The notes: generated by a model not told the origin, from the sequence alone. DNA of 64,000 bases from Lentimicrobiaceae bacterium (GCA_041660125.1 JBAZWY010000003.1:164030-228029), one strand, 5' to 3'; shown: positions 28,554 to 62,064, counted from the stretch's first letter. Made by a program: numbers and translations.

Positions 28554-28618
28554 TGTGAATTATGTAACTTGAATATAAAGTTATGTAACACTTTCAGCCA
28601 TTCAGGATATTACCTTTG
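28554..28618 (+). promoter_or_regulatory. Island promoter module P1 (distal and proximal TGTAAC repeats plus -7 box)
   Basis: Sequence is TGTGAATTATGTAAC-N12-TTATGTAACAC-N19-TACCTTTG. The start codon at 28642 lies 24 nt after the box. Confidence 0.8.
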
Positions 28619-28641
28619 ATCCCAACCTTAAAACCATCCTT

Positions 28642-28827
28642 ATGTCACTTCTTACCATTTTACTCGTGATAATTGTTGCAGGTTTTGTACTGTGGCTTGT
28701 CAATAATATGATCCCTATGGATCGTAAAATCAAGAAAATACTGAATATTGTTGTAGTGGTAGTCGTTTGCATATGGCTTCTGAAGGTATTTGGCTTACTC
28801 AGTACACTGACCAATATTCATGTGTAA
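28642..28827 (+). CDS. Thivi_2564-family small membrane protein
   Basis: 61 aa with two TM segments. MSLLTILLVIIVAGFVLWLVNNMIPMDRKIKKILNIVVVVVVCIWLL matches this family's pattern. Confidence 0.7.
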   Translation: MSLLTILLVIIVAGFVLWLVNNMIPMDRKIKKILNIVVVVVVCIWLLKVFGLLSTLTNIHV

Positions 28828-28945
28828 AATTGATTTCCGCTTCAATAAAAGCTTGTTGAATTAACCGGCAACAGATTACATCAGAGGAAAGATCGTTTGA
28901 AAAACAGCGGTTGAATTGATACATCTATATTTAAAATAAAAAATC

Positions 28946-29140
28946 ATGAATCTAAAAAGAATCTTTGGCGCATTGCTCACATTACTTGGTATAGGTGGAC
29001 TGATCTATGCTGCAATAATAGCTGTAAATACATCAGGTGGAACACATAATATTAAGGCACTTGTCATATATGGCATTCTTGGCCTTATTTTCTTTGTTGC
29101 GGGTATCAGCCTGGTTCGCACCACGAAAGATGAATCGTAA
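28946..29140 (+). CDS. Small two-TM membrane protein of unknown function
   Basis: 64 aa (LLTLLGIGGLIYAAII ... GILGLIFFVAGISLV). It lies downstream of P1 in the same orientation. Confidence 0.6.
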   Translation: MNLKRIFGALLTLLGIGGLIYAAIIAVNTSGGTHNIKALVIYGILGLIFFVAGISLVRTTKDES

Positions 29141-29207
29141 TGTGTGAATGATGTAACACATAAATAGAATTATGTAACACATGCCGGAACATCACAAGGT
29201 ATCTTTG
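29141..29207 (+). promoter_or_regulatory. Island promoter module P2
   Basis: Sequence is TGTGTGAATGATGTAAC-N12-TTATGTAACAC-N19-TATCTTTG. It begins immediately after the stop codon of the previous gene. Confidence 0.8.
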
Positions 29208-29246
29208 CATCTAACAATTTCACTAACTTATTTAAACCTAAAGAAA

Positions 29247-29582
29247 ATGAAAAAAACTATCTTTTTTGCGCTGCTTATGATCATGTCAATGAGCGCATCA
29301 ACCGTATTTGCAGGCAATTTAAATCCTAAAAATGCGATAGAAAACCCGGCAATCCCGGCAAAAACTGATACTAAATTAACAGAAGCACAGGCTGCAAAAT
29401 TGAAAGATCGTGTTGAAGAAATACGCAACATGGACAAATCGAATATGTCAGCTTCCGAAAAACTTGCACTTCGTAAAGAAGTAAAAGAAATTAAACAAAC
29501 TGTGAAAAAAGACGGTGGTTATGTTTATATCGGCACCGGTACCCTGATTCTCATTGTTGTTCTGCTCATCATCCTGCTTTAA
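29247..29582 (+). CDS. Secreted, C-terminally anchored coiled-coil protein (paralogue of 62326..62652)
   Basis: I moved the start from the track's 29181, which lies inside P2, to the ATG at 29247. The product begins MKKTIFFALLMIMSMSASTVFA (signal peptide). The C-terminus is GGYVYIGTGTLILIVVLLIILL. Confidence 0.7.
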   Translation: MKKTIFFALLMIMSMSASTVFAGNLNPKNAIENPAIPAKTDTKLTEAQAAKLKDRVEEIRNMDKSNMSASEKLALRKEVKEIKQTVKKDGGYVYIGTGTLILIVVLLIILL

Positions 29583-40366: not shown

Positions 40367-41080
40367 CTACTTCTTCTTCTCTTCCGCTTTCTCTTTCAGC
40401 TTTTCAGCGTCTCTTGCTTTCTTTTTAAAGTATCCTTTTAAGAAAATATTATGCTTAACTGCTTTCATGTTTTCATCCAGTCCCTTGGAACTTGTTTTAA
40501 GGTTCTCAATGGTTTGATTCAGATTTTCAGCGATGGCCGTATCCTGAATCAGCCTGCCCAGTGTTCCCTGCCCGGTGTTTATATAGGACATAATATCAGC
40601 AAGTTGCTCCGAAATAACTTCGGCGTTAGCCGCTGTCACCTCCAGGCTTGCCATGATGGCATCCGTTTCAACAGGCTCGGTTGATATGAGTTTTTGACCT
40701 TCTTTCGCTAAAGGCGCTTCGGTACTGCCTTGGGTAATGACCAGGAGCCGGTCACCAATAATTCCTTCGGAACCAATGGCAACCTGACAATCGGATTTTA
40801 TAAACTGGTGAACTTCTTTCCTGACCAACATATCAACCCTTACGGTTGAATCATTTATGATGACGATATTGTCAACTGTGCCAACATTAATGCCTGAAAA
40901 ACGGATGTTGTTTCCAACCTGCAACCCGCTAACATTATAAAACGTTGTAGTGAGTTTAAAAACAGGATTAAACAGGTTTTTTTGTCTCCCGATTATAAAA
41001 ATGGCCAGTACAAAAATAGCCAGTCCTCCTGCGACAAAAAAGCCTAAGCGTATTTTAAATTTTTGTGAGTGCGTTTCCAT
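40367..41080 (-). CDS. mlaD: MlaD/MCE-family substrate-binding protein (operon 1)
   Basis: 237 aa. It has an N-terminal TM, an MCE core (NVSGLQVGNNIRFSGINVGTVDNI) and a helical tail. Confidence 0.82.
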   Translation of the reverse strand: METHSQKFKIRLGFFVAGGLAIFVLAIFIIGRQKNLFNPVFKLTTTFYNVSGLQVGNNIRFSGINVGTVDNIVIINDSTVRVDMLVRKEVHQFIKSDCQVAIGSEGIIGDRLLVITQGSTEAPLAKEGQKLISTEPVETDAIMASLEVTAANAEVISEQLADIMSYINTGQGTLGRLIQDTAIAENLNQTIENLKTSSKGLDENMKAVKHNIFLKGYFKKKARDAEKLKEKAEEKKK

Positions 41081-41130
41081 TGGATGTGTTTTTTTAGGCT
41101 AGTTGAGTATTTATGTTGGTTATTCGTTAA

Positions 41131-41356
41131 TTGATCATTTGTCATTCGATGGTCATTCAGTTGTTGAGGATAAAGTTTTTGAGCTTTGGGAGATTGGTGA
41201 GTTGTCATTCGATGGTCATTCAATTGTCGTTAGACAAGAACTTTGAGTTATTGAGGTTATTGGAGAGTTGGTATATTTTACATTAAAAGGGATTTGTGAT
41301 TTGTGCTCTGTGAGTTTTGATTTATGACCAGCGACCAGTGACTAGTAACCAGTAAC
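41131..41356. repeat. Block of direct and short tandem repeats between the mlaF and mlaD genes of operon 1
   Basis: GTCATTCGATGGTCATTCA(G/A)TTGT occurs at 41141-41164 and 41204-41227. gatttgtgatttgtg and gaccagcgaccagtgactagtaaccagtaac lie at 41291-41356. Confidence 0.85.
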
Positions 41357-41376
41357 TTAGAAATTGATAATGATTT

Positions 41377-43125: not shown

Positions 43126-43192
43126 CAAAATTACATGCAAACCACAGTGAAAGTGTTACATAACTATTTCAATAATTTACATGATTCACACA
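43126..43192 (-). promoter_or_regulatory. Island promoter module P3
   Basis: The minus strand reads TGTGTGAATCATGTAAA-N12-TTATGTAACAC-N19-TAATTTTG. It lies about 105 nt upstream of the mlaE start at 43019. Confidence 0.78.
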
Positions 43193-44393: not shown

Positions 44394-44396
44394 GGC

Positions 44397-45173: not shown

Positions 45174-45177
45174 CGCT

Positions 45178-48875: not shown

Positions 48876-48942
48876 CAAAGTTCAGTTAGTAATGCCGGAT
48901 ATCTGTTACACAACTTTATATTAAAGTTATATAATTCACACA
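48876..48942 (-). promoter_or_regulatory. Island promoter module P5
   Basis: The minus strand reads TGTGTGAATTATATAAC-N12-TTGTGTAACAG-N19-GAACTTTG. It lies 55 nt upstream of the start at 48821. Confidence 0.78.
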
Positions 48943-48986
48943 TCAATTGACTGAAAATGAGTTGTAAAAGATAATCAAGATGAAAA

Positions 48987-49053
48987 TGTGTGAATGATGT
49001 AACTCTTGAATTTAATTGTGTAACGCATTGTAAAATTTCCCGACAGTACTTTG
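48987..49053 (+). promoter_or_regulatory. Island promoter module P6, back-to-back with P5
   Basis: Sequence is TGTGTGAATGATGTAAC-N12-TTGTGTAACGC-N19-GTACTTTG. Confidence 0.78.
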
Positions 49054-49090
49054 CAAAGTGAAAATATTATCACGAACTAATCCAGACACA

Positions 49091-51136
49091 ATGAAAATAA
49101 ACCGAACAAGATTTTGGATGACTACAGTCGTAGCCGTCCTATCCTTTGCAGCAATCATGACTGCTTGCAAAAAAGATGACTACATTGATCCCGTTTATGT
49201 ATGCCCGATTGTTGTATCAACAAACCCGGCTGATGCTGCTACTTCCGTACCTCTCCGTCAGGTTATCAGTGCAACCTTTAATGAAGAGATGGACCCGGCA
49301 ACGATCGACCAGGCATCTTTTATCTTAACAAGTGGGTTAAAATCGAGTGAAGCAATCACAGGTATCCTTACCTACGACAATACAAATGCTACGATGAGTT
49401 TTACGCCAACCACTCCGCTCACATCCAACACAACTTATACCGGAAGGATTAAAACCACGGTTAAAGATTTAGCAGGTACACCATTACAAACTGATTATGT
49501 TTGGACATTTAGCACTGGGGTGGTTCTGTCGCCAACAATTATTTCGACTGACCCGGTAAATAATGCCCTGAATGTTTTCCTTAACACAGATGTAGAGGCA
49601 AATTTTAGTGTTGCAATGGATCCGACCACTATTACTCAAACAAGCTTTACCTTAAAACAAGGTACAACTTTAATTGCAGGCGCCGTTACATATAGTGGTA
49701 CAAAAGCAGTATTTACACCTACCGTTGCTTTGACGCCAGGTACTGTTTATACCGGAACTATTACTACTGAAGCCAGGAATGTTCCAGGTGCGCAATTGAT
49801 GGCTGATTATGTTTGGACATTTACAACAGGTGCTTATATTGCACCATTAGTAAGTTCTACTAGCCCGGCAAATAATGCCTTGGGTGTAGCTCTTAATAAA
49901 ACCGTAACTGCAACGTTTAGCGTTACAATGAATCCTGGGACCATTAATACCACAACCTTTACATTAAAACAAGGTACAACACCAATTGCAGGCGTAGTTA
50001 TCTATTCAGGAACAACAGCTTCGTTTAATCCTACTGTTGATCTTTTACCAGGTACAGTTTACACTGCTACAATTACTACCGGTGCAGCAAGTACATCAGC
50101 TATGAAACTGGCTGCTGACTATGTTTGGACATTTACCACTGCAAATCTTACTGATCCTCTTGTTATTTCTACCGACCCTGCAGACAATGCATCAGGAGTA
50201 GCTCTTAACAAAATTGTAACAGCAGATTTTAATATGACAATGGATTTGTTGACCATTACTTCGACAACCTTTACATTGATGCAAGGGACAACGCCGGTTG
50301 ATGGAACAGTTTCGTATGCTGGTACAACTGCAACTTTTGCTCCATTGAGTGATCTTTTGCCAGGTACTAATTATACAGCAACGATTACTACCGGAGCTAT
50401 GAATCTTGCTGGTACTGCACTGGCCGATAACTATTCATGGACCTTCAGGACCACAGGTGGCGCAATTGTTCCTCCAGTTATTAATCTTGGAGCGGCTGAT
50501 GATTTCGGAATTCTTGCAGGTGTAGGAGTTAGTAATGCAGCTGGCTTTAGTGTAATATATAATATGAATGTTGGTATTTACCCTGGACTTCGTTCATCAG
50601 TTACCGGATTCCCACCTGCAACCGTAGTGAACGGCGCAATTTTTGCCGCTGACGACATTGCTCCTCCGGGAGTTGCTGCCATGCTTCTACAGGCTAAAAC
50701 TGACCTCACCGCTGCATATCTTTTTGCAGAAGGAGCAACTTCACCGGCACCAGCTACAGTATCAGGTGATCAGGGTGGTAAAACACTTGCACCTGGTATC
50801 TATAAATCAACTTCTACCTTATTAATTCAATCAGGTGATTTAACACTTGATGGACAGGGTGATCCGAATGCAGTTTGGATATTCCAGATCGCATCTGACT
50901 TTACTACAGTTGGCGGAGCAGGCGGAAGTGTTATCCTCAGCGGAGGCGCCCAGGCTAAAAACGTTTACTGGCAGACAGGTAGTTCCGCTACCATCGGCGA
51001 CTATACCGTGTTCCAGGGAAATGTTCTGGCTCTGACATCCATAACAATGAATTCGCATGCAACAGCAGTAGGCCGGATGCTTGCCAGGAATGGTGCCGTA
51101 GTAATGACACACACAAACACAATAACAAAACCATAA
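49091..51136 (+). CDS. Lipoprotein with five Ig-like (SbsA/Big_5-type) repeats and a C-terminal DUF3494 ice-binding-fold domain
   Basis: I moved the start to the ATG at 49091 because the track's GTG at 49058 abuts the P6 -7 box. The lipobox is AIMTAC. There are five ~100-aa repeats, each ending in DYVWTF(S/T)T. The C-terminus reads LGAADDFGILAG...PGIYKS...DPNAVWIFQI...AQAKNVYWQTGSSATIG...GRMLARNGAV, typical of DUF3494. Confidence 0.8.
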   Translation: MKINRTRFWMTTVVAVLSFAAIMTACKKDDYIDPVYVCPIVVSTNPADAATSVPLRQVISATFNEEMDPATIDQASFILTSGLKSSEAITGILTYDNTNATMSFTPTTPLTSNTTYTGRIKTTVKDLAGTPLQTDYVWTFSTGVVLSPTIISTDPVNNALNVFLNTDVEANFSVAMDPTTITQTSFTLKQGTTLIAGAVTYSGTKAVFTPTVALTPGTVYTGTITTEARNVPGAQLMADYVWTFTTGAYIAPLVSSTSPANNALGVALNKTVTATFSVTMNPGTINTTTFTLKQGTTPIAGVVIYSGTTASFNPTVDLLPGTVYTATITTGAASTSAMKLAADYVWTFTTANLTDPLVISTDPADNASGVALNKIVTADFNMTMDLLTITSTTFTLMQGTTPVDGTVSYAGTTATFAPLSDLLPGTNYTATITTGAMNLAGTALADNYSWTFRTTGGAIVPPVINLGAADDFGILAGVGVSNAAGFSVIYNMNVGIYPGLRSSVTGFPPATVVNGAIFAADDIAPPGVAAMLLQAKTDLTAAYLFAEGATSPAPATVSGDQGGKTLAPGIYKSTSTLLIQSGDLTLDGQGDPNAVWIFQIASDFTTVGGAGGSVILSGGAQAKNVYWQTGSSATIGDYTVFQGNVLALTSITMNSHATAVGRMLARNGAVVMTHTNTITKP

Positions 51137-51146
51137 TACTAAATAT

Positions 51147-53195
51147 ATGAAATTGATAACTAATTTTAAAAAGGGACCGCGCAAGGCGTGGTCCCCTTAT
51201 ACCCTGATCGTTAAAGGCGTTGTTATCAGTGCTTTTATGCTAATCGGCATCAACGCATCATTACAGGCGCAGGAAACTGAATACACAAGACCTTCGTGGT
51301 TGTTTGGTGTAGCAGGAGGTGCAAATTTTAACTTCTATAACGGATCTACACATCAATTAGATGCAAACTTCGCTCCTCCGGTAACATTTCATGAGGGCCA
51401 GGGTATCGGTCTGTTTGTCGCACCTCTTATTGAGTATCATCGTCCGGATTCAAGACTGGGTTTCATGTTACAGGGAGGCTTAGACAACCGTCAGGGAAAA
51501 TTTGACCAGGTAAAAGCACCTTGTAACTGCCCGGCAGATTTAGAAACAGACATAAGCTATGTTACCATTGAACCAAGCCTGAGACTTGCGCCTTTCAAAT
51601 CGGATTTTTATTTGTACGCCGGCCCGCGCTTCGCTTACAATATATCAAAATCCTATACCTATAAGCTGGGATTAAATCCTGCATATCCTGATCAGGAGCC
51701 TACTGCTGATGTTACAGGCGATTTAAGTGATGTTAATGATATGCAGATTTCAATGCAGGTCGGGGCAGGATATGATATCCAGCTTTCATCCACAAGCCAA
51801 CAAACACAATGGGTGCTCTCCCCTTTTGTTTCTTTCCAGCCTTATTTTGGACAGACCCCACGTTCAATTGAAACGTTGAATATAACTACCATAAGAGCGG
51901 GTGTTGCACTTAAACTTGGACGTGGCCGCGAAATACCGGCACCTGCAAAGGTTGAAGAAATTGCACCTGTTGTAGTTGTTGCAGTTGTACCTGAGGTTAA
52001 GTTTATGGTGAACTCACCTAAGAATGTTCCTGCAGAACTTAAAGTAACCGAAGTATTCCCAATACGTAACTATGTATTCTTCGATTTGGGATCTAAAGAG
52101 ATTCCTAAGCGGTATGTATTGCTCCAAAAGGATGAGGTAAAAGATTTCAGGGAAGATCAACTTGAATCAAGCAAGCCTAAAAACATAGAAGGTCGTTCAG
52201 ATCGTCAGATGGTTGTTTATTATAACATCCTGAATATACTCGGCGACCGCATGGTAAAGAATCCTTCGACTACCGTTACATTGGTCGGATCGTCGCGGGA
52301 AGGCAGCAAAGATGGCCGCGAAATGGCAGAATCGATAAACACATACCTTGTAAATGTATTCGGAATCAGTGGTTCGAGAATTACTGTTAAAGGCCAGAGC
52401 AGACCTGATGTTCCATCTGAACAACCAGGCGGTTCAAAAGAACTTGTACTCCTTCGTGAAGGTGACCGCAGAGTATCTATCGAAAGCAAATCACCTGAAC
52501 TGTTGATGGAATTCCAGAGTGGACCTGATGCATCGCTGAAACCAGTCGTTATCGCAACTATACCGGAAGCTCCTGTTGAAAGCTATATTACTTTCGAGAG
52601 TATAGGTGCAACAGAAGCCTACAAGTCGTGGAGGCTGGAAATAAGGGACGAAAAAGGAACAGTTCAGAATTTCGGACCTTATTACCAGGATTCAGTCAGC
52701 ATACCTACAAAATCAATACTTGGCACAAGACCGTCAGGCGACTATAAAGTGAAAATGGTTGCTGATACCAAAGCTGGCAGGATCGAAGAGAAGGAATCTA
52801 CAGTACACATGGTACTATGGACACCACCACAAACCAAAGAAGGAATGAGATTCAGCATATTGTATGAATTCAATAAATCGAAGGCTACTGATATGTATGA
52901 AAAGTATCTTTCTGAAATTGTAACACCAAAAATTCCTTCTGGCGGAACAGTTATTATCCAGGGCCATACCGATATTATCGGTGGTGAAGAAAATAACGTA
53001 GAACTTTCAGTTGCCAGGGCTAATGATGTAAAGGGCATTCTCGAAAAGAGCCTTACAAAAGCTGGCAGAAGCGATGTTAAATTTCAGGTTAACGGATTTG
53101 GTGAAGATGAGAAATCAGCACCATTCGAAAACAAATATCCTGAGGACCGCTTTTATAACCGTACTGTTATAATTGATATCATCCCCGTAAAATAA
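51147..53195 (+). CDS. Large OmpA-family outer-membrane protein (N-terminal beta-barrel, central region, C-terminal OmpA-like domain)
   Basis: 682 aa. The C-terminus is IIQGHTDIIGGEENNVELSVARANDVKGIL, a peptidoglycan-binding OmpA_C motif. A weaker OmpA-like segment occurs at VTLVGSSREGSKDGREMAESINTYL. Confidence 0.82.
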   Translation: MKLITNFKKGPRKAWSPYTLIVKGVVISAFMLIGINASLQAQETEYTRPSWLFGVAGGANFNFYNGSTHQLDANFAPPVTFHEGQGIGLFVAPLIEYHRPDSRLGFMLQGGLDNRQGKFDQVKAPCNCPADLETDISYVTIEPSLRLAPFKSDFYLYAGPRFAYNISKSYTYKLGLNPAYPDQEPTADVTGDLSDVNDMQISMQVGAGYDIQLSSTSQQTQWVLSPFVSFQPYFGQTPRSIETLNITTIRAGVALKLGRGREIPAPAKVEEIAPVVVVAVVPEVKFMVNSPKNVPAELKVTEVFPIRNYVFFDLGSKEIPKRYVLLQKDEVKDFREDQLESSKPKNIEGRSDRQMVVYYNILNILGDRMVKNPSTTVTLVGSSREGSKDGREMAESINTYLVNVFGISGSRITVKGQSRPDVPSEQPGGSKELVLLREGDRRVSIESKSPELLMEFQSGPDASLKPVVIATIPEAPVESYITFESIGATEAYKSWRLEIRDEKGTVQNFGPYYQDSVSIPTKSILGTRPSGDYKVKMVADTKAGRIEEKESTVHMVLWTPPQTKEGMRFSILYEFNKSKATDMYEKYLSEIVTPKIPSGGTVIIQGHTDIIGGEENNVELSVARANDVKGILEKSLTKAGRSDVKFQVNGFGEDEKSAPFENKYPEDRFYNRTVIIDIIPVK

Positions 53196-53283: not shown

Positions 53284-53350
53284 TGTGTGAATGATGTAAA
53301 TCTTTCCCATAATTGTGTAATGCTTTGCGGTGAGCAACGACTCACCTTTG
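53284..53350 (+). promoter_or_regulatory. Island promoter module P7
   Basis: Sequence is TGTGTGAATGATGTAAA-N12-TTGTGTAATGC-N19-CACCTTTG. Confidence 0.78.
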
Positions 53351-53386: not shown

Positions 53387-53929
53387 ATGAAAACTTTAAA
53401 ATTAATTGTAATCGTAATGACGTTGTTTCTTGCAGGAACTACCCAGGCACAAGTATCGGTGAATGTGAATATTGGCTCGCCACCGATGTGGGGACCAGTT
53501 GGATATTCTAACGTTCAGTATTATTACCTCCCCGATGTGTATGCCTACTATGACATACATTCATCCATGTTTATTTATCAGAGTGGTGGAGTATGGGTTC
53601 ACAGAACTTACCTTCCAACCCGCTACAGAAATTATGATTTATACAATGGGTATAAAGTTGTAATGACTGACTATCATGGCAATGAACCTTATGTTCATTA
53701 CAGGGATTATAAAAGGCGATATGCAAAAGGCTATCACGGTCCGGCACAAAGAAATATTGGTGAAAGACCAGAAAACGGGTACTCAGGGACCAAAGGAAAT
53801 TCAAATAGACATTATAAAGAATCGAACCATGGCAATGTTAAAAGCAACGGTCAGAGAAATGCTAAAAGTAGCGGACATGGCAATAATAATAAGGGTGGTG
53901 GTCACGAAAAAGGACATCGTAAAAAATAA
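53387..53929 (+). CDS. Secreted Tyr-rich protein with a His/Asn/Gly/Lys-rich hydrophilic tail; unknown function
   Basis: I moved the start to the ATG at 53387 because the track's GTG at 53330 lies inside P7. The signal peptide is MKTLKLIVIVMTLFLAGTTQAQ. The tail reads GNSNRHYKESNHGNVKSNGQRNAKSSGHGNNNKGGGHEKGHRKK. Confidence 0.65.
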   Translation: MKTLKLIVIVMTLFLAGTTQAQVSVNVNIGSPPMWGPVGYSNVQYYYLPDVYAYYDIHSSMFIYQSGGVWVHRTYLPTRYRNYDLYNGYKVVMTDYHGNEPYVHYRDYKRRYAKGYHGPAQRNIGERPENGYSGTKGNSNRHYKESNHGNVKSNGQRNAKSSGHGNNNKGGGHEKGHRKK

Positions 53930-54011
53930 TACTTATTGGCACTTACAATCTTCAACCTTAAACATCAAAAAACCAATAACTTTAAAAACCAATAATTAAA
54001 CAAACAAACAA

Positions 54012-54548
54012 ATGAAAAAAATAGCTTTAGCATTACTGTTAGCCTTTTTAATATCAGGGCCAAATTTATTCGCCCAGAGAACCTATTCTACTGGACAATA
54101 TGGACACACCTTAAATGTCGGCCTTGGTATAGGAGGATATTACGGATATTATAATTATGGACATTCATTGCCGGTATTTAACATTAACTATGAATTTGAT
54201 GTGGCAAGAAATTTCACATTGGCTCCTTTTATTTCTTTTTCAACGTACAGAGATGATGCGAATTATTACCGTGAAACGATTATACCTATAGGTGTTAAAG
54301 GCACTTACTATTTCGATCAGATATTAGGTGCTGGCCCCGACTGGGATTTTTACCTTGCAGGATCTTTAGGGTTTTCTATTGTAAAAGAAACCTGGGATAA
54401 TGGGTATTCACACGATACATATTACCATAATGTAAATCCTTTGTTTCTTGACTTACATGTTGGAACAGAATATCACCTGAGTAAGAAGGTAGGATTATTC
54501 CTTGACCTTTCAACCGGTGTTTCAACTCTTGGTTTGTCATTTCGCTAG
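54012..54548 (+). CDS. Small outer-membrane beta-barrel protein
   Basis: 178 aa with a signal peptide. It shows an alternating aromatic/Gly strand pattern and ends in a C-terminal aromatic (LGLSFR). Confidence 0.65.
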   Translation: MKKIALALLLAFLISGPNLFAQRTYSTGQYGHTLNVGLGIGGYYGYYNYGHSLPVFNINYEFDVARNFTLAPFISFSTYRDDANYYRETIIPIGVKGTYYFDQILGAGPDWDFYLAGSLGFSIVKETWDNGYSHDTYYHNVNPLFLDLHVGTEYHLSKKVGLFLDLSTGVSTLGLSFR

Positions 54549-54695: not shown

Positions 54696-54762
54696 TGTGT
54701 GAATAATGTAACTCTTTTACAAAATTGTGTAATGCTTTCAGGCAAATTGAGACTGATCTTTG
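54696..54762 (+). promoter_or_regulatory. Island promoter module P8
   Basis: Sequence is TGTGTGAATAATGTAAC-N12-TTGTGTAATGC-N19-GATCTTTG. Confidence 0.78.
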
Positions 54763-54802: not shown

Positions 54803-55072
54803 ATGGGTACAAAAACATTATTAATCGGCGTTTTGGCCGGTGCTGCCGCTGGTGCTGTATTAGGGATTTTATACGCTCCGGATAAAGGCTCAAACACACG
54901 CAGGAGATTTTCGCGGAAAAGCTATGCTTATAGCGACGAACTGGAACAAAAATTCAACGATTTGATTGACAACATCACTGAACAATTTCAGACTGTTGTC
55001 GAAGAAGTTAACCTTATGGCTGACGCTGAAAGGCTTAAAACAGAAAAAGTAAAGACTGCTACTGCCAAATAA
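54803..55072 (+). CDS. YtxH-domain general-stress-type protein
   Basis: I moved the start to the ATG at 54803 because the track's start at 54725 lies inside P8. MGTKTLLIGVLAGAAAGAVLGILYAPDKGSNTRRR is the YtxH signature. Confidence 0.8.
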   Translation: MGTKTLLIGVLAGAAAGAVLGILYAPDKGSNTRRRFSRKSYAYSDELEQKFNDLIDNITEQFQTVVEEVNLMADAERLKTEKVKTATAK

Positions 55073-55181
55073 TGAAAAATGTGACAGTCAGGTTACTGCC
55101 AGCAGGATGTTACTCTATTGAATTCGGAAGTTGAAATACAATTCAGTTAAAAACAAGTGAATTATTTGCAATTCCCCTAAA

Positions 55182-55370
55182 ATGAAAACTATAAAAACAA
55201 TTGCGTTTTTACTGTTGTGCATTGGTCTTTTATATGGCACAACATCCTGCGTTGTATATCATACTAAACATGACAATGGAAAACATGCGGGATGGTACAA
55301 GAATTCCAATAACCCACATCATCCGTATAGCTCAAATCCAGGGCAATCAAAGGGGAACCATAAAAAATAA
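55182..55370 (+). CDS. Small lipoprotein with a His/Asn/Lys-rich hydrophilic tail
   Basis: 62 aa. The lipobox is LYGTTSC. The tail reads HDNGKHAGWYKNSNNPHHPYSSNPGQSKGNHKK. Confidence 0.6.
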   Translation: MKTIKTIAFLLLCIGLLYGTTSCVVYHTKHDNGKHAGWYKNSNNPHHPYSSNPGQSKGNHKK

Positions 55371-55426
55371 TTTCCTGAAGCTTAAAACTAATTCATAATA
55401 AAAACCAACAGAATAATTATTAGCTC

Positions 55427-55768
55427 ATGGAAACCACGGCAAATTCAATTGAATCGCTATTTGAGAAAGCTGAAGCTTATGGCAAAACAACCTATGAACT
55501 GTCGAAACTCAAGTTACTGGAGACGACTAACATAGTAGTTACATCATTGATTGCCAGGCTTAGTACTATTCTTATGATCTCAATGTTCTCATTTGTGTTG
55601 AGTATAGCTGTGGCATTATGGCTGGGCGATATACTCGGAAAAGCTTATTATGGTTTTTTTATCGTTGCAGGATTTTACCTTTTGGCTGGTGTGATATTGC
55701 ATTTTTTTCTTCACGGTTGGGTTAAAAAGCCAATCAGTGAATTGATCATCAAACAAGCGCTTCAATAA
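55427..55768 (+). CDS. Holin-X-like (phage holin 3_6 superfamily) two-TM membrane protein
   Basis: 113 aa. An amphipathic N-terminal helix (SIESLFEKAEAYGKTTYELSKLKLLE) is followed by two TM segments. In many Bacteroidota this type is commonly found next to YtxH genes. Confidence 0.6.
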   Translation: METTANSIESLFEKAEAYGKTTYELSKLKLLETTNIVVTSLIARLSTILMISMFSFVLSIAVALWLGDILGKAYYGFFIVAGFYLLAGVILHFFLHGWVKKPISELIIKQALQ

Positions 55769-55776
55769 TCGGTATC

Positions 55777-56226
55777 ATGCAAACAATAATTACACAAACC
55801 GATTTAAGAGCGGCCATACTTATGTTAGAAAGCAGGCAGGCTGAAGAAGGTAAATTGCTGAAAGAACAATTTCTTGTTGCAGTTGAAAGTATTAAACCTA
55901 TCAACCTGATTAAAAGCGCTTTTAGCGAAGCAGCTGAATCAACGGATTTACAGGACAACCTGATAAACTCAACAATTGGCATATCGGCCGGATACCTTTC
56001 GAAAGTACTCTTTCAAGGTGTTACAGGCAATCCAATTAAAAAAATTATCGGCACCGCTATAATGTTTGGAATTAAAAACCTGGTTGCAAAAAATCCTGAA
56101 GTCGTCAAATCAGGAGGAAGAGCAATATTTAATCTTATCAGGAATACTTTGAGAGAGAAAAATAATAAAGATCAGAATAACGAAGACTGGAAAACGGTTG
56201 ACCCAAAGTCTGCATCCCGAATATAA
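55777..56226 (+). CDS. Hypothetical protein, third member of the YtxH / Holin-X-like gene set
   Basis: 149 aa. The gene is co-oriented and starts 8 nt after the preceding gene. Confidence 0.55.
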   Translation: MQTIITQTDLRAAILMLESRQAEEGKLLKEQFLVAVESIKPINLIKSAFSEAAESTDLQDNLINSTIGISAGYLSKVLFQGVTGNPIKKIIGTAIMFGIKNLVAKNPEVVKSGGRAIFNLIRNTLREKNNKDQNNEDWKTVDPKSASRI

Positions 56227-56361: not shown

Positions 56362-57906
56362 TCAGGCTACTCTCATTTCGCTCTTGTTCTCTGAATTCAA
56401 TCTTCTTTCAGAATGATCGTCTAAAGCTTTATGATTCTCTGTTTCTAATCCTTTGAGTTCATTCAGTAGTTCCGTTAAATTAACAGTAGCATACGTCGAT
56501 GTATGGTCCGACATGGCGTATGGGATAATAAGGTCCTTGCCATGAATAATTGAACCGCACGAAAAAATGGCATTAGGTACTGAGCCTTCTCTCTCAGCTT
56601 CATTTGGCATGATCAAAGGGACATTTAACCTTCCGATTTCCTTTTCCGGGTTATCAAGTTCAAATAATGATGCGCTTATAACGTGTCTATTCATCGGGCC
56701 AACCGCGTGTGTTATAACCAGCCAGCCATCTTCTGTCTCAATCGGCGAACCGGCGTTGCCAATTTGTAAAAGTTCCCATGGATATTTAGGCTGCTGTATG
56801 AGTGTTGCTTCGCGCCAGATATTTATAGTATCCGAATAGGCAATAAAATTACTGACTCCATCAACCCGGCAAAGCATGGCATATTTTCCGTTAATTTTCC
56901 TTGGGAACAAGGCCATTCCTTTATTGTGTACAATTTCACCATACATAGGCAGAACCTTGAAATGATAAAAATCGGTAGTCTTAATTAATTTTGGCATAAT
57001 AGTTATCCCATCATTTGCCGTATAGGTAGCATAATACACGGAATCTCCGTTGTCGTCAGTAAATTTAACAAAACGGGCATCTTCAATCCCCTTTTGCTCT
57101 GACTTTGAAATCGGGAATATAACCCTTTCGGAAATGGCCGAATCAATAGAGAAGTCAATTTCATAATGTGAAGAAGCCAGCCACTTAACTTGATTGATAA
57201 GCAATTCCTTTTCTATTGAGTTCGTCTCATTTGCATCCTTCAGACTTCTCATTAACTCGCCAAATGTAAAGGCATCCCCTAATTTGTCCAGAATAAAAGC
57301 AGGTGAAATTGCAGTTTCCGGATCCTGCATCTCAACCAGTTTCTCCTGAAAAATATTTTTATCGTAAACATGACGTTTGATAACATCGGCTTCAGCCAGC
57401 ATCCTGCCAACCGGTTCAACTGTGAGATTATTATTCCTGTCGAGCACACCTGAACGGAAAACGATGGATGAAATGTGCCCTTCGCCTGTAGCCCTGAAAC
57501 TTAAAATAACACGTTTTTCGTCCTTGTTTAATTCAGTCTGATCCGGATCTTCAACAATAGATGGATTGTAGAATGCAGCAGATTCGATGGAATATTCCAT
57601 TGTGAAAAAGGAACCGATCAGTGCTTTTCGCGATGAACTCAGTTCTTTCACATCAATTTCGAGCAGTTTGAATATATCACTGAGTTTTTCAATATGCTTT
57701 TCAAATGTTCGTGTAATATTTCTGTGTCTGGTCGAAAAGTCTCTTAACAGCGGATTTAGTGCATAATTCACTTCATTTTCAGACATTACAAGCACCGTTC
57801 TGATGATTTCAATGCTTCTGTTTTCCGAGGTAAATAAAAAGCGGGGAATGATGCGGGTGGAGTCAGGTGAAAACTGAGTGCCTTTTCTGATAACTTTAAC
57901 GTGCAT
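56362..57906 (-). CDS. GH130-like glycosidase/phosphorylase-fold protein with an ~190-aa N-terminal extension (paralogue B)
   Basis: 514 aa. The C-terminal beta-propeller-type blocks are GIEDARFVKFTDDNG, MALFPRKINGKYAML, NAGSPIETEDGWLVITHAVG and IPYAMSDH. Confidence 0.65.
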   Translation of the reverse strand: MHVKVIRKGTQFSPDSTRIIPRFLFTSENRSIEIIRTVLVMSENEVNYALNPLLRDFSTRHRNITRTFEKHIEKLSDIFKLLEIDVKELSSSRKALIGSFFTMEYSIESAAFYNPSIVEDPDQTELNKDEKRVILSFRATGEGHISSIVFRSGVLDRNNNLTVEPVGRMLAEADVIKRHVYDKNIFQEKLVEMQDPETAISPAFILDKLGDAFTFGELMRSLKDANETNSIEKELLINQVKWLASSHYEIDFSIDSAISERVIFPISKSEQKGIEDARFVKFTDDNGDSVYYATYTANDGITIMPKLIKTTDFYHFKVLPMYGEIVHNKGMALFPRKINGKYAMLCRVDGVSNFIAYSDTINIWREATLIQQPKYPWELLQIGNAGSPIETEDGWLVITHAVGPMNRHVISASLFELDNPEKEIGRLNVPLIMPNEAEREGSVPNAIFSCGSIIHGKDLIIPYAMSDHTSTYATVNLTELLNELKGLETENHKALDDHSERRLNSENKSEMRVA

Positions 57907-58120
57907 TTTAGTAATTGTTTACTTGTATAGTTACATTAATTAATTGCTGTGCATCGGAATAGTAACTACTTTATTTATGAGAACGACAAATATATTACAT
58001 CATTTAGTCGGGATTACACCACCGGTGCGATATTTATGAACCGTTATTGTTTATAAAAAAAATTGTTCTGTTTAAGAAAAATATACAAAATGACTTTTTT
58101 GTAATCTTATGAAGATTATG

Positions 58121-58279
58121 GTTCCGGGTGCCTGGTTCCGGGTGCCTGGTTCCGTGTGCTGGTTCAATACTTTATTCAAGACATTTCTGCTTTCAATCAG
58201 CAACGAGAATACCTGAAAATACAATAAGGGCTATTTATAACAGTCACTGGCACCCGGCACCCTGTACCCGGCATCCTGT
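58121..58279. repeat. Long imperfect hairpin with tandem-repeat arms (14-bp unit GGTTCCGGGTGCCT)
   Basis: The left arm at 58121-58166 contains about 3 units. The right arm at 58246-58279 (cactggcacccggcaccctgtacccggcatcctg) is complementary. It lies just downstream of the stop of 58284..59873. Confidence 0.85.
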
Positions 58280-58283
58280 ATTA

Positions 58284-59873
58284 TTACTTGTTGTTGCCGG
58301 AAGCTTTCAGCACATCAAGCAGTTCCCTGAGATCAACAGTAGCGTAAGTGGATGAATGATCGGACATAGCATACGGTAGAATCAGATCTTCATTATGAAT
58401 AATTGAACCACACGAATAAATTACATTCGGTACATATCCTTCTCTTTCAGTTTCATTTGGTACCATTAAAGGGGACGATAGTCTTCCAATCTCTTTCTCC
58501 GGATTGTCAAGCTCATACAATGCAGCTCCTAAGGTATATTCTCTCATCGAACCTACTGCATGAGTTATAACCAGCCAGCCATCTTCTGTTTCTATCGGCG
58601 AGCCTGCATTGCCGATCTGTACCAGTTCCCACGGGTATTTGGGCTGCTGAAGAATTTTGGCTTCATGCCAGATGTTTATACTATCCGAAAAAGCGATATA
58701 ATTATTTACACCATCAATCCTGCATAGCATGGCGTATTTCCCGTTGATTTTACGGGGAAACAGGGCCATTCCCTTATTTTGGGCTAACTCACCATTAATA
58801 GGTAATATTTTAAAATTATAAAAGTCTTTTGTACTGATCAACTTTGGCATAATAGCCATACCATCATACGCCGTATAAGTGGCATAATAGGTTACTTCGC
58901 CATCATCATCGGTGAATTTTACAAAACGGGCATCTTCAATACCTCTTTGCTCGGTTGCCGATACAGGAAAAATAACCCTTTCGGAAATGGCTGAATCAAT
59001 TGAGAAAGTAATCTCGTAGTGAGAGGAAGCCAGCCACATCATCCGGTTCATAATTTTAATATGATCTTCGGTTAGTTTGGGGTTCTTTCGTGCTATTTCG
59101 AGATTCTTCATTAATTCGCCATAGGTAAAACTATCTTCAAGCTTATCCATGATAAATGCTGGCGAGATATCTTTTCTATGATCCTGCTTTTTGTCAATTT
59201 TATCAATGATAATTGGTGGGATAACATTTGCCTGGCCTGGTTTTTCATCATGTTTATCCAGAATTGCGGGAGAAATCACATTCCCCTGCTCGTTAAGTTC
59301 AGCCAGTTTAGCCTGAAATGCTTTTTTATCGTAAACATTCCGTTTAATTAGATCAGCTTCAGCCAGCATTTTCCCAACAGGTTCAAGGGTGAGGTTGTTA
59401 TTCCGGTCGAGAAGTCCTGAACGGAAAACCACTGATGAGATATGGCCTTCTCCGGTTGCACGGAAACTGAAGATCACTCTTTTTTCATCCTGTCGTGTTT
59501 CTGACTGATCAGGATTTTCAACAACGGAAGGATTGAAAAAAGCAGCGGACTCGATGGAATATTCCATTGTAAAATAAGAGCCGATAAGTGCTTTCTGCGA
59601 AGCGGTGAGATCATCTTCATTCACTTCAATTTTATCAAATATAGGAGCCAGTTTGTTGAAATGCTTCTCAAATATTTTCGAAATATTCCTGTGACGCCTC
59701 GAATACCCTCTCAACAACTGGCTCATGGCAATGTTTACTTCCTTTTCGGGCATTGCCAATACTTTCCTTATTATATCAGCCGATCTTTCATCGTTCACAT
59801 AAAGGAAACGTGCAATTACCCTGCTTGGATCGGGTGAAAAAATAAACTTCTTTCTGGTTATTGCTACTTGCAT
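58284..59873 (-). CDS. GH130-like glycosidase/phosphorylase-fold protein (paralogue A, with an internal triplicated segment)
   Basis: 529 aa. It is collinear with 56362..57906 and shares GIEDARFVKFTDDDG, MALFPRKINGKYAML, NAGSPIETEDGWLVITHAVG and LPYAMSDH. Confidence 0.65.
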   Translation of the reverse strand: MQVAITRKKFIFSPDPSRVIARFLYVNDERSADIIRKVLAMPEKEVNIAMSQLLRGYSRRHRNISKIFEKHFNKLAPIFDKIEVNEDDLTASQKALIGSYFTMEYSIESAAFFNPSVVENPDQSETRQDEKRVIFSFRATGEGHISSVVFRSGLLDRNNNLTLEPVGKMLAEADLIKRNVYDKKAFQAKLAELNEQGNVISPAILDKHDEKPGQANVIPPIIIDKIDKKQDHRKDISPAFIMDKLEDSFTYGELMKNLEIARKNPKLTEDHIKIMNRMMWLASSHYEITFSIDSAISERVIFPVSATEQRGIEDARFVKFTDDDGEVTYYATYTAYDGMAIMPKLISTKDFYNFKILPINGELAQNKGMALFPRKINGKYAMLCRIDGVNNYIAFSDSINIWHEAKILQQPKYPWELVQIGNAGSPIETEDGWLVITHAVGSMREYTLGAALYELDNPEKEIGRLSSPLMVPNETEREGYVPNVIYSCGSIIHNEDLILPYAMSDHSSTYATVDLRELLDVLKASGNNK

Positions 59874-60176
59874 GAGATTTTAGTTTTCATAACGGGATCA
59901 TCGCTTTGCTGATGTTTTTGACCTTTCGGGGTTGAGTGCAATTTTTGCACTTTACCAATTCAAACATTTTAGTTGAACTGAATTCAGTGCTTTTCAATGC
60001 CCTGGCAGGCTCCTCAACGGTTCGGTTATTTTATTTTTTTACGAAAGTAGTCATTCTGATGGATTTCTTTTTAAAAATTAACAATAAATAAGTGTGTATT
60101 CCCGGGGAAAAGTCAATTTATCAGATACTCTCTTAAAATTGAGGGTGGCGATTTGTGGTGAAAAGAATATACTTTA

Positions 60177-61691
60177 TCACACACTCGCACTTTTAAGCCG
60201 CTTCAGGTTTAGTTTTATTATTTTCCTGAAGTGAAAGCCATATATAGTAAAGGTAATGGAGTTTGCAAATAGTCCTGGGCGCTTAAAGATTGTCCAGAAA
60301 AACAGGTTCCAGAATCGAAAGCCTGACCTGTTCCAGAATCCGATATAAAAAAATGATTTTATAAGTGCCAGCATATAAATGAAACTCATGGGATCCCGCT
60401 TACGCTGGGTTTGATTGTATTCCCTTAAAAACGTTTTTACCCGGGCATAATATGCCTTAGGGGAATAGATTGAAGTTAATAACTTTGTGTAACCTTTGAT
60501 AAGTTCTTCTGATTTCATCTTCGGAACGAAGTTTACCGTGAAGTCGGTGTTGTCGCCCGTTGATTGTTTCAATATCCTGTTTTCATGATGCAGCCGTTGG
60601 TATAGTTTTGTATCAGGCAAGGCTGTCAGCAATCCAACCATTGCGGTTACAATCCCACTCCGCTGAATAAAATCAACCTGCGAATCAAAAATGGAAGAAG
60701 GATCGCTGTCAAAACCGACAATAAATCCGCCCGTCACTTCAAGCCCTGCTTTCTGTAAGGTGTTCACACTCCTGAGCAGATCACGGTTCTCATTTTTAAA
60801 CTTGTTGCACTCCTTCAGGCTGTCTTCATTGGTTGTTTCAATTCCTATAAACACTCTGTCAAACCCGGCTTCGGTCATTCGTTTTATCAATTCATAGTCA
60901 TCTGCCAGTTCAATGGATACCTGTGTGTTAAACGAATGCTGAGTCATAAACTGCGATTGCCATCCGGTTATTGCAGGTAATATCTCTTTTTTTAGCTTAG
61001 GTTTATTCCCGATAAAGTTATCGTCAACAAAAAATATTTCCTTGCGCCATCCTGCGCTATGAATGGCTTCCAGTTCACTAACCACTTGTTCCTTGTTTTT
61101 AGTACGCACTTTCCGGCCAAACAAGAGTGTAATATCGCAAAACTCGCAATCGTAAGGACATCCCCGCGAGTATTGAATATTCATAGTTGCATATTTGCGC
61201 ATATCGATAAGCGACCACATTGGAACAGGTGTATCCGCCAGATCTGCAAATTTGTCCGTGGTATAGAGGTGTTTAGGATTACCCTGGTACAGATCCATCA
61301 GGAATTCAGGCAAAGTCAGCTCAGCTTCGTTCAGCACCAGGTAGTCAACCTCTCCATACTCCTCAAAGTCAGATGTAAACAGCGGTCCGCCGGCAATAAT
61401 TTTTTTATTCTTTGCCTTGCACCTGCGAATGATCTCCCAGGTTGATTTTCGTTGAACATTCATAGCGCTGATCAGCACATAATCAGCCCGGTTTAACAGT
61501 TTTTCGTCAAGTTTTTCAACATTCAGATCCACTAATTTAAGTTCCCAATCGGAAGGCAGCATGGATGCTACCGTCAGAAGACCCAATGGGGGAAGGGCCG
61601 CTTTCCGGTGAATAAACTTCAGGGCATATTTAAAACTCCAGAAAGTTTCGGGGTACTCAGGATATATTAAAAGGGCATTTTTCATCGCCAT
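60177..61691 (-). CDS. B12-binding-domain radical SAM protein (DUF4070-type C-terminus)
   Basis: 504 aa. The N-terminal cobalamin-binding-like Rossmann region is LIYPEYP...PPLGLLTVASML. The radical SAM cluster motif is YSRGCPYDCEFCD. A hydrophobic C-terminal segment follows. Confidence 0.78.
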   Translation of the reverse strand: MAMKNALLIYPEYPETFWSFKYALKFIHRKAALPPLGLLTVASMLPSDWELKLVDLNVEKLDEKLLNRADYVLISAMNVQRKSTWEIIRRCKAKNKKIIAGGPLFTSDFEEYGEVDYLVLNEAELTLPEFLMDLYQGNPKHLYTTDKFADLADTPVPMWSLIDMRKYATMNIQYSRGCPYDCEFCDITLLFGRKVRTKNKEQVVSELEAIHSAGWRKEIFFVDDNFIGNKPKLKKEILPAITGWQSQFMTQHSFNTQVSIELADDYELIKRMTEAGFDRVFIGIETTNEDSLKECNKFKNENRDLLRSVNTLQKAGLEVTGGFIVGFDSDPSSIFDSQVDFIQRSGIVTAMVGLLTALPDTKLYQRLHHENRILKQSTGDNTDFTVNFVPKMKSEELIKGYTKLLTSIYSPKAYYARVKTFLREYNQTQRKRDPMSFIYMLALIKSFFYIGFWNRSGFRFWNLFFWTIFKRPGLFANSITFTIYGFHFRKIIKLNLKRLKSASV

Positions 61692-61776
61692 TGCTCTATA
61701 TACAGCAGCAGGTAAGGGATTTATCCGCGATTTCAGGACTTATTTATACCTCTCTTAAGAGTATAATAAATTTGAA

Positions 61777-61843
61777 TAAAATTACTGCTTTCAGACCTGT
61801 AATTTTTTATATAATTTATGATAAAAGTTACATAATTCACACA
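61777..61843 (-). promoter_or_regulatory. Island promoter module P9 (most degenerate proximal repeat)
   Basis: The minus strand reads TGTGTGAATTATGTAAC-N12-TTATATAAAAA-N19-TAATTTTA. It lies about 85 nt upstream of the start at 61691. Confidence 0.7.
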
Positions 61844-61997
61844 TTTTGCTATATTTTAATACACCTCAATCAGTCACTTCTCCGTTAGAGCCTGGATATT
61901 TTATTATTATATAGCCCGGTAACAATAATTTACAGTATTTACCATGGAATGTTTCTGTGCAAACATTACAAAGCATTATAGGAACGCTGATTTATAA

Positions 61998-62064
61998 GGT
62001 GTGAATAATGTAACTTATTTATGGAATTATGTAATGCATAGTGGAAGTGCCGGGTATATCTTTG
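61998..62064 (+). promoter_or_regulatory. Island promoter module P10, divergent from P9
   Basis: Sequence is GGTGTGAATAATGTAAC-N12-TTATGTAATGC-N19-TATCTTTG. Confidence 0.78.

Follow-up and report, generated by a model that had tools for sequence, protein, structure and literature searches.

The subject of this report is a 64,000-nucleotide stretch of the genome of a Lentimicrobiaceae bacterium (GCA_041660125.1 JBAZWY010000003.1:164030-228029), referred to below as the window, in which one composite promoter sequence of 65 bp occurs ten times. This module consists of two direct repeats followed by a box that resembles the -7 element of Bacteroidota promoters, and it is conserved across Bacteroidota together with its geometry and its orientation toward genes. 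The module and an operon encoding an AraC-family protein, a kinase and a receiver are reciprocally linked in the genomes that carry them. It is probable that the AraC-family protein, which has an HMA-like N-terminal domain and would control its own gene, activates the modules as a tandem pair and thereby drives a phylum-wide stress regulon.

The promoter module in the window

A search of the window with TGTGAATNATRTAAM, a degenerate 15-mer that covers the distal part of the module, gives exactly 10 matches at no more than one mismatch, as against 0.28 on average and at most 3 in dinucleotide-preserving shuffles of the same sequence. The ten copies, named P1 to P10 (Table 1), share the consensus TGTGAATnATrTAAm, N12, TTrTrTAAyrC, N19 and an 8-mer ending in TTTG, within which 9-bp direct repeats of the form TTrTGTAAC are separated by 12 variable bases. 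The spacing is the same in every copy. The TGTAAC-type cores start 21 bp apart in 10 of 10 copies, and 21 nt separate the proximal core from the 8-mer, which ends in TTTA in P9 and in TTTG elsewhere. A perfect TAnnTTTG is present in four copies (P1, P2, P3 and P10), and P9 departs from it by one base. All ten modules are intergenic and point at an open reading frame (ORF) whose ATG lies 23-133 nt past the box.

Scoring of the window with a 70-column weight matrix, the source of which was 153 unique copies from other genomes, gives 54-72 bits for the ten copies, whereas the best score in 40 shuffled 64-kb strands is -1.6. No further module reaches 0 bits anywhere in the window, and there is none in the first 28 kb. 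An Rfam scan of the whole window at gathering thresholds gave no match, and a tRNA scan of it found none.

The ten copies, their fixed spacing, the matches to TAnnTTTG, the intergenic and co-oriented placement and the absence of copies from the first 28 kb had all been described in the original prediction and are borne out here, though its coordinate for P1 is off by 2 nt relative to its own alignment, in which 'cc' begins at 28552. It had further described a co-regulated island of 34 kb ending at 62064. The dense cluster of promoters is real, but the picture of a uniform 34-kb block does not hold, as about 6 kb within that range (29.9-35.9 kb, with genes for an M1 peptidase, phosphoenolpyruvate carboxykinase and an aminotransferase) lack a module. 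Nor does the cluster end at 62064, since an eleventh module lies about 2.8 kb beyond the window end on a contig that is 100% identical to positions 58974-64000. The regulon is phylum-wide and not specific to an island; the island is a locally dense stretch that runs past the window.

P5 and P6 are divergent, and their distal ends are 48 bp apart (48876-49053) within a single 269-bp intergenic region (48822-49090) that is common to both. These two modules nearly abut, and two activator-bound promoters would therefore be accommodated in that one region.

Conservation across Bacteroidota

Copies outside the window were sought with a strict 35-nt pattern, which contains the two repeats only and excludes the -7-like box, in a collection holding one genome per bacterial or archaeal species. 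Chance was estimated to yield roughly one match to this pattern in the collection. At least 120 genome stretches were matched, and all of those listed belong to Bacteroidota or to the 'FCB group'. The listed matches include Bacteroidales (Prolixibacteraceae, Lentimicrobiaceae, Paludibacter, Draconibacterium, Maribellus and Carboxylicivirga), Chitinophagales and Saprospirales (titled Saprospirales or Saprospiraceae), Cytophagales (Emticicia, Arcicella and Lacihabitans) and Flavobacteriales (Flavobacterium piscis, F. sandaracinum, Lutibacter and Yeosuana).

Although the query did not include the -7-like box, this box is found at the same spacing in about 97% of the copies. In the 153 copies it reads nAcCTTTg at the same distance, with A in 134, C in 103, the three T residues in 148, 147 and 123, and G in 86. 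The first T of TAnnTTTG is present in only 62 of the 153, and C is preferred at the third and fourth positions. Since the box is conserved at a fixed distance without having been searched for, the repeats are independently confirmed to be coupled to a -7-type core element. The bases AATG directly before TGTGAAT, also outside the query, are conserved as well (A in 120, A in 134, T in 109 and G in 112 of 153). The spacer is A/T-rich with a bias to T, AA precedes the proximal repeat, and the flanks align between the distal and proximal sites as AAT..TGTAAC. The 21-bp spacing was fixed by the pattern that retrieved these 153 copies, which are thus no independent test of it.

The relation of the module to genes is equally regular. 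A co-oriented ORF of at least 40 codons begins within 400 nt of 145 of 155 copies, and the median distance from box to ATG is 40 nt. Copies lying inside genes, which that prediction had regarded as the mark of a repetitive extragenic palindromic (REP) sequence or a miniature inverted-repeat transposable element (MITE), are rare: only 9 of 248 matrix hits fall wholly within a stop-free stretch of at least 150 codons, compared with 70% of random 70-mers. The proposal of a dedicated regulon, defined by an upstream element of fixed geometry that is joined to a core promoter, is supported by these same-spacing copies upstream of Bacteroidota genes and by the stress-type gene families that recur behind them (see below).

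Linkage to a candidate AraC-family regulator

An AraC-family protein of about 185 aa is repeatedly encoded by the first gene after a module. By tblastn the family is found in 23 of the 120 listed module loci, each of which spans at most 8 kb, at 45-82% identity and mostly at 62-82%. When all ORFs in the 120 loci are clustered, the AraC family is the second most recurrent, after a broad PAS/kinase cluster and before CsbD, and the top 40 clusters contain no sigma factor and no other DNA-binding family. The linkage is also seen from the side of the protein. Four loci found through the AraC protein alone, from Labilibaculum sp. K2S and three metagenome contigs, carry 6, 9, 9 and 7 modules per approximately 20 kb, and in each of them the AraC start codon is preceded by a module at a distance of 39-49 nt. 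Modules are present in 69 of 80 metagenome loci retrieved by AraC protein alignment, including all 19 that are at least 10 kb long, and a co-oriented module lies within 150 nt upstream of 49 of the 74 AraC genes with enough upstream sequence. The overall density of modules in these AraC-retrieved loci is 2.9 per 10 kb, as against none in three control loci retrieved through the LytTR-like regulator (L001, L003 and L005) and none in the first 28 kb of the window.

The AraC gene usually heads an operon with genes for a hybrid PAS-HisKA-HATPase-REC kinase and a receiver-only protein of 143-154 aa, the kinase being present in 65 and the receiver in 36 of the 80 loci. The kinase is 70-78% identical between orders. 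In four loci (L073, L098, L117 and L129) the region encoding its N-terminal approximately 120 residues matches itself at 63-nt offsets, which indicates tandem 21-residue repeats whose copy number varies between genomes.

A 179-aa paralogue, 62-68% identical to the AraC protein, is linked to modules even more tightly. The paralogue ends in (E/D)-N-V-stop, and in 11 loci the codons AAT GTG TGA are the module's own AATGTGTGA, its first nine conserved bases (L049:1040-1048, L089, L115, L039, L072 and L128 are among the loci with this overlap). The coding end and the regulatory site overlap in a fixed register across distant lineages.

The window itself contains no AraC homologue in a search at E<1e-6. 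The contig identical to its right end extends 6.3 kb past the window, and this continuation, seen in L130-L132, encodes in order an AI-2E-family transporter, a GT1 glycosyltransferase, an OmpA protein preceded by the eleventh module, a 70-aa ORF, an AraC-type protein and a kinase that is CHASE3-type as read from its N-terminal sequence. The AraC gene of the window's lineage lies about 4.4 kb beyond the right end of the window.

As judged from its sequence, the candidate regulator, a Bacteroidota-specific protein, is a member of the AraC family with a DNA-binding domain of two helix-turn-helix (HTH) motifs. Its C-terminal domain matches Pfam HTH_18 (E 3e-17) and HTH_AraC (E 1e-11), and no NCBIfam equivalog or specific AraC subfamily model reaches its cut-off. 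At least 8000 clusters belong to the family at E<=1e-10. Identity across lineages is about 75-93%, and 79-93% in the best 120 of the at least 8000, with the two recognition helices nearly invariant, so that conservation of the protein parallels conservation of the motif. In an AlphaFold2 model (predicted local distance difference test score 78), residues 1-62 form an N-terminal domain of beta-alpha-beta-beta-alpha topology, which a long linker helix joins to a DNA-binding domain of seven helices. Foldseek aligns the C-terminal domain of the model with AraT, AdpA, MarA, SoxS, Rob and ToxT (E down to 9e-6; template modelling (TM) score normalized to the target 0.73-0.83 for AraT, AdpA, MarA, SoxS and ToxT). 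The modelled N-terminal domain resembles an HMA/ferredoxin-like fold, the Foldseek matches being weak ones to the HMA-fold metallochaperones Atx1, CopZ, GolB and HAH1 (E 0.04-0.1, TM score approximately 0.7), and an invariant cysteine (C13 in the numbering of P0199) occupies the place of the HMA CxxC motif.

Proposed mechanism

In the proposed mechanism the module would be an activator-dependent promoter. Its core is the -7-type box nAcCTTTg, a weak form of TAnnTTTG, and in place of a -33 element it has two direct repeats of AATnrTGTAAC placed 21 bp, or two helical turns, apart, of which the distal one has an extra 5' extension, AATGTGTG. The -7 box of Bacteroidota spans -12 to -5 (PMC9723704), and transcription would therefore be expected to start about 5 nt after the G of the box. 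Counted from that start, the proximal core would span about -39 to -34 and the distal core about -60 to -55, and the AATGTGTG extension would reach to about -73. The conserved A of the -7 box lies 22 nt past the end of the proximal core, there is no conserved TTTG at -33, and the proximal repeat would overlap the -35 region.

AraC, RhaS, MelR and XylS use sites of this layout, in which tandem direct repeats are separated by two helical turns and the proximal repeat covers the -35 region of a promoter that has no upstream element of its own. Tandem activation of the AraC type, in the class II manner, is therefore proposed. We infer that the AraC protein binds the module directly and activates rather than represses it, two subunits sitting in tandem as AraC does at araI1-I2. 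The two subunits could also be one of each paralogue, a variant considered because the distal and proximal sites are not equivalent. Of the two subunits, the one nearer the promoter would extend over the -35 region and bring in the sigma-A holoenzyme. The module upstream of the regulator's own gene would provide positive autoregulation, by which the operon would amplify its own expression, and the co-transcribed hybrid PAS kinase and single-domain receiver are presumed to gate the activity of the activator in response to stress.

Several observations weigh against this mechanism. The connection between module and AraC protein is one of guilt by association, and the AraC genes could be members of the regulon rather than its regulator; 25 of 74 AraC genes in the metagenome loci have no module within 150 nt. 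The AraC gene of the window's own lineage has no canonical module upstream and in its place has two AATGTGTGAAGG remnants and a low-complexity GAACC/CCTCGCC insert (L130:15500-15730, about 4.2-4.4 kb past the right end of the window), which suggests that the autoregulatory promoter has been disrupted or remodelled there. The TGTG element found upstream of the distal repeat is missing from the proximal one, which makes the two sites non-equivalent. In addition, TGTAAC is typical of the -35 sequences of extracytoplasmic function (ECF) sigma factors, as for SigX of B. subtilis. Finally, the taxonomic picture rests on the first 120 matching stretches listed, and stretches rather than whole genomes were compared for co-occurrence.

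Alternative explanations

One alternative is that the modules are read by some other, unlinked activator, for example of the CRP/FNR type, and that the AraC/kinase/receiver operon is a frequent member of the regulon forming a downstream sub-circuit. Regulators are often members of regulons, the 25 AraC genes without a nearby module would fit such a role, and the pentamer TGTGA recalls a CRP half-site. The sites in the module are direct rather than inverted repeats, however, with no TCACA partner to complete TGTGA-N6-TCACA, and no other DNA-binding family is enriched near modules. In 11 loci the 179-aa paralogue is fused to a module in fixed register, and the AraC protein is as extremely conserved as the site. 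These points and the 21-bp tandem repeats whose proximal member covers the -35 region, a hallmark of the AraC/XylS family, likewise speak for the AraC protein, and an unlinked activator is considered unlikely. Alternatively, the module could be the promoter of an alternative sigma factor, of the ECF or another type, with TGTAAC as the -35 element, the CTTTG box as the -10 element and the distal repeat as a second or UP-like element. TGTAAC does match the 'AAC' motif of ECF -35 elements, the box departs from the housekeeping TAnnTTTG in its first T and in its preference for C at the third and fourth positions, general stress regulons elsewhere are driven by sigma factors, and an ECF sigma gene follows a module in L025, with sigma homologues within two further module loci (L074, which has a homologue of the L025 protein, and L021). 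Against this, there is no CGT-type -10 motif 16-17 nt after the core, where the columns 16-20 nt downstream carry at most 0.22 bits, and the A and TTT that are conserved in the box also belong to the housekeeping -7 element. A sigma factor would also leave unexplained the equally conserved repeat 21 bp upstream and AATGTGTG, and the 40 ORF clusters that recur most often around modules include neither a sigma nor an anti-sigma family. With neither a CGT motif at -10 nor recurrent sigma genes near modules, this explanation is rejected as quite improbable.

The modules could also be bound by the pair of a LytS-type kinase and a LytTR-like regulator whose genes lie directly left of P1 (26739-28191, minus strand). 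The protein with a His_kinase domain (PF06580) and the receiver protein adjoin P1 and P2, homologues of the regulator are named as LytR/AlgR family, and the periodicity of 9 + 12 = 21 bp fits sites of LytTR regulators, which (as in AgrA, ComE and PlnC) bind 9-bp direct repeats 12 bp apart. Orthologous pairs, 62-75% identical, nevertheless have no module within 10 kb on either side in Gaoshiqia, in Ohtaekwangia or on a metagenome contig of 97 kb, and in two of these three genomes the pair adjoins Na+/H+ exchanger genes. In the 120 listed module loci neither protein has a close homologue, the regulator being matched only weakly and over part of its length in two of them (L049 and L111, 27-33% identity), and the C-terminal domain of the regulator has no Pfam LytTR match even at E<=1. 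With no module at the three orthologous pairs and no close homologue in the module loci, this pair is rejected as the reader of the module and is a very remote candidate for that role. The chance that the module is a dispersed repeat of the REP/MITE kind or a structured RNA, and not a promoter, is negligible. The many near-identical short intergenic copies, some of them with a small downstream palindrome, would be in keeping with such an element, but conservation is limited to specific columns while the spacers are random, the copies always point toward a gene start 20-130 nt away and are nearly absent from coding sequence, the element is kept across orders without shared synteny, and there is no Rfam match. 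Orientation, near-absence from coding sequence and the non-conserved spacers lead to its rejection.

Leader elements downstream of the box

A conserved palindrome, GTGAAAAT-N-ATTCAC, occurs just past the -7 box of some modules, including P6 and P7 in the window (Table 1) and, for example, modules in L036, L060, L100 and L123. It is present at 35 of 289 modules, compared with 0.04% of random sites, and mostly begins exactly 4 nt after TTTG, at the predicted start site. Its folding as RNA is weak (-3 to -6 kcal/mol, z -1.4 to -3.0), and the sequence of its stem is conserved and resembles the TGTGAAT of the module. The palindrome may act either as a second operator or as a hairpin at the 5' terminus. 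In the leaders of L082, L105, L119, L121 and L124 another small hairpin comes after the palindrome; it is conserved as CCGCCAGnnGCGG or a closely similar sequence and precedes genes for lipoprotein-like proteins of approximately 150 aa and approximately 250-270 aa.

Genes of the regulon

The transcription units that follow the ten modules in the window are given in Table 1. Families recurring downstream of modules were counted over the 120 listed foreign loci together with the window's own copies. Proteins of the Thivi_2564 family follow 10 module copies, ice-binding-like proteins (some with a sorting domain of the type IX secretion system (T9SS)) and OmpA proteins with a glycine zipper 9 each, CsbD and small cupins 8 each, the 111-aa protein 6, DUF5670 and radical SAM proteins 4 each, and YtxH 3. 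Single modules precede genes for Dps/ferritin, Usp, YceI, DJ-1/PfpI, BrkB, KaiC, an ECF sigma factor and stand-alone receivers, and in L127 one module precedes the gene for a ribosome hibernation factor (Ribosomal_S30AE) and another that for PPK2. The gene content characteristic of general stress responses is thus found downstream of modules (CsbD, YtxH, Dps, Usp, the hibernation factor and small membrane stress proteins). Such gene content is that of the sigma-B, sigma-S and EcfG general stress regulons, to which envelope functions are added in greater weight here. To go by these families, the regulon would be a general-stress-like or envelope-protection set, presumably induced by stress.

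Several of the units in the window have counterparts elsewhere. The family of the 111-aa protein of unit 2 follows modules in 6 loci, that of the 180-aa secreted protein of unit 7 in 5 and that of the radical SAM protein of unit 9 in 4, and the family of the second gene of unit 1 is found in 6 loci. MlaD/E/F clusters recur in 9-10 module loci and GH130 in 13. BrkB, a possible further member of unit 3, is directly module-driven in L029, and the YtxH, holin_3_6 and ORF trio of unit 8 also adjoins the AraC operon in L128. Searches of Pfam and NCBIfam gave no match above cut-off for the module-driven families of 111, 150, 180 and 186 aa and none for the unit 7 proteins.

A GT1-family glycosyltransferase of approximately 750-800 aa is a frequent neighbour of modules and of the AraC operon (L128:13639-16041, L130:11665-14025; 15 of 120 module loci), which hints at stress-induced synthesis of a sugar or polymer within the regulon. 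In the window, the gap of 1.1 kb between the aminotransferase and BrkB genes (35944-37057) is free of tRNAs, of Rfam matches and of ORFs that exceed 48 codons. In the LytS-type pair left of P1, the gene for the kinase, a 256-aa protein with one transmembrane segment, overlaps that for the 238-aa response regulator, and identity across orders is about 62%.

Table 1. Promoter modules, downstream transcription units and leader palindromes in the window
Feature	TGTGAAT start	Coordinates	Strand	Score (bits)	Content
Module P1	28554	28554..28618	+	55.4	TGTGAAT ... TACCTTTG; promoter of Thivi_2564-family gene
Module P2	29143	29143..29207	+	63.8	
Module P3	43190	43126..43190	-	59.3	
Module P4	46170	46106..46170	-	57.2	
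Module P5	48940	48876..48940	-	56.9	Back-to-back with P6, TGTGAAT starts 49 bp apart
Module P6	48989	48989..49053	+	54.4	
Module P7	53286	53286..53350	+	71.9	Top score in the window
Module P8	54698	54698..54762	+	68.4	
Module P9	61841	61777..61841	-	54.3	Weakest proximal core, TTATATAAAAA; box TAATTTTA
Module P10	62000	62000..62064	+	56.5	
Unit 1		28642..29140	+		61-aa Thivi_2564-family membrane protein 28642-28827 (NCBIfam NF041949, E 6e-21)
Unit 1, second gene (probably included)		28946-29140	+		64-aa protein with two transmembrane segments
Unit 2		29247..29582	+		111-aa secreted or lipoprotein-like protein
Unit 3		40367..43019	-		MlaE 42156-43019, MlaF-type ABC ATPase 41377-42159, MlaD 40367-41080 (Pfam)
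Unit 3, possible further members		38285-40132, 37058-38002	-		615-aa ORF 38285-40132 and BrkB 37058-38002, downstream of MlaD
Unit 4		43410..45972	-		Second operon of MlaE 45178-45972, MlaF 44397-45173, MlaD 43410-44393 (Pfam)
Unit 5		46395..48821	-		808-aa DUF748/AsmA-like envelope protein (Pfam, E 2e-80)
Unit 6		49091..53195	+		Big_5 + Ice_binding-like protein 49091-51136; outer membrane protein beta-barrel + OmpA 51147-53195 (Pfam)
Unit 7		53387..54548	+		180-aa secreted protein 53387-53929; 178-aa ORF 54012-54548
Unit 8		54803..56226	+		YtxH 54803-55072, 62-aa ORF, holin-X-like membrane protein 55427-55768, 149-aa ORF 55777-56226 (Pfam)
Unit 9		56362..61691	-		B12-binding radical SAM/DUF4070 60177-61691; GH130-like 58284-59873 and 56362-57906 (Pfam)
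Unit 10		62147..62913, continuing past window end	+		lmo0937/DUF5670 62147-62302 (NCBIfam NF033488), 108-aa ORF 62326-62652, YtxH 62674-62913 (Pfam)
Palindrome after P6		49058-49073			
Palindrome after P7		53354-53371			

Relation to known systems

The closest parallel in mechanism is provided by AraC/XylS-type activation (AraC at araI1-araI2, RhaS, MelR and XylS), with which the module shares two direct repeats of 21-bp period, the proximal one over the -35 region, and the lack of an upstream promoter element of its own. The candidate regulator, too, carries a small N-terminal domain and a linker helix ahead of its two-HTH domain. It differs from that family in that the recognition sequence, AATnrTGTAAC with a distal AATGTGTG, is new, and in having an HMA/ferredoxin-like N-terminal domain instead of a cupin or receiver domain. 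The target would be a phylum-wide stress regulon with a Bacteroidota -7-type core and not a catabolic operon, and genes for a hybrid kinase and a stand-alone receiver accompany that of the regulator, whose binding is predicted from linkage. LytTR sites (AgrA, ComE and PlnC) similarly lie upstream of a weak promoter as direct repeats of 9 bp with 12 bp between them, a geometry that is equally of the AraC type, but the sequence found here is off the LytTR consensus in this orientation and the neighbouring LytS-type pair is unlinked to modules in other genomes.

In gene content the regulon resembles those of sigma-B in Bacillus and Listeria, sigma-S in Enterobacteria and EcfG-NepR-PhyR in Alphaproteobacteria, sharing with them CsbD, YtxH, lmo0937-family proteins, Dps, Usp, YceI, a hibernation factor and OmpA/glycine-zipper proteins. 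The autoregulated regulator operon is a further likeness, and the kinases and receiver beside the regulator recall the inputs of PhyR. Those regulons depend on an alternative sigma factor, whereas the evidence here points to a classical activator acting on a housekeeping-type core. Compared with the Bacteroidota housekeeping promoter (-33 TTTG and -7 TAnnTTTG), the module retains, from the -7 element, A and TTT(G) at a fixed place, and its leader is of typical length (approximately 35 nt). It departs from that promoter in having no -33 TTTG 19-21 nt upstream, where GTAACA of the proximal repeat is found instead, and in the composition of the -7 box, with the first T in only 62 of 153 copies and C at the 'n' positions.

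The activator-dependent promoter, the AraC-family regulator and the general stress regulon are each known in kind. What appears to be new is the site, the architecture of the regulator, its coupling to a hybrid kinase and receiver, and the use of an activator instead of a sigma factor for a regulon of this sort. No description of the motif, of this AraC subfamily or of a general stress regulator of Bacteroidota was found in the full-text literature, most subscription journals being outside its reach, which agrees with the failure of the original prediction to recognise the motif as a described Bacteroidota site. The start-site maps of F. psychrophilum and B. thetaiotaomicron report other motifs only and not this one.

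Significance for Bacteroidota

Bacteroidota are a dominant phylum of soils, sediments, oceans and guts. To our knowledge, a general stress or dormancy response of these bacteria is undescribed, and the sigma-S, sigma-B and EcfG paradigms are absent or uncharacterised in them. The module and its linked operon may represent such a response. As a tentative proposal, which we regard as a serious possibility though not as the expected outcome, Bacteroidota would have a phylum-wide general stress response free of an alternative sigma factor, in which an autoregulated HMA-like/AraC activator (or perhaps two paralogues, on the non-equivalent distal and proximal sites), a hybrid histidine kinase of the PAS or CHASE3 type and a single-domain receiver form a phospho-dependent circuit resembling a partner switch, and in which the 65-bp promoter has stayed near-invariant since the orders diverged.

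The analysis yields a promoter signature that can be scanned for, a catalogue of target families and a named candidate for the master regulator together with its sensor proteins. Cultured carriers of the motif in which these could be tested directly include Flavobacterium piscis, F. sandaracinum, Maribellus, Labilibaculum, Lacihabitans and Carboxylicivirga. The regulon also gives a stress context to families of unknown function, among them Thivi_2564, the 111-aa, 150-aa and 180-aa secreted proteins, the small cupin and the ice-binding-like T9SS cargo. The module may serve as a marker of the stress state in metatranscriptomes, and with its regulator it may provide an inducible promoter/regulator pair for the genetics of Bacteroidota.

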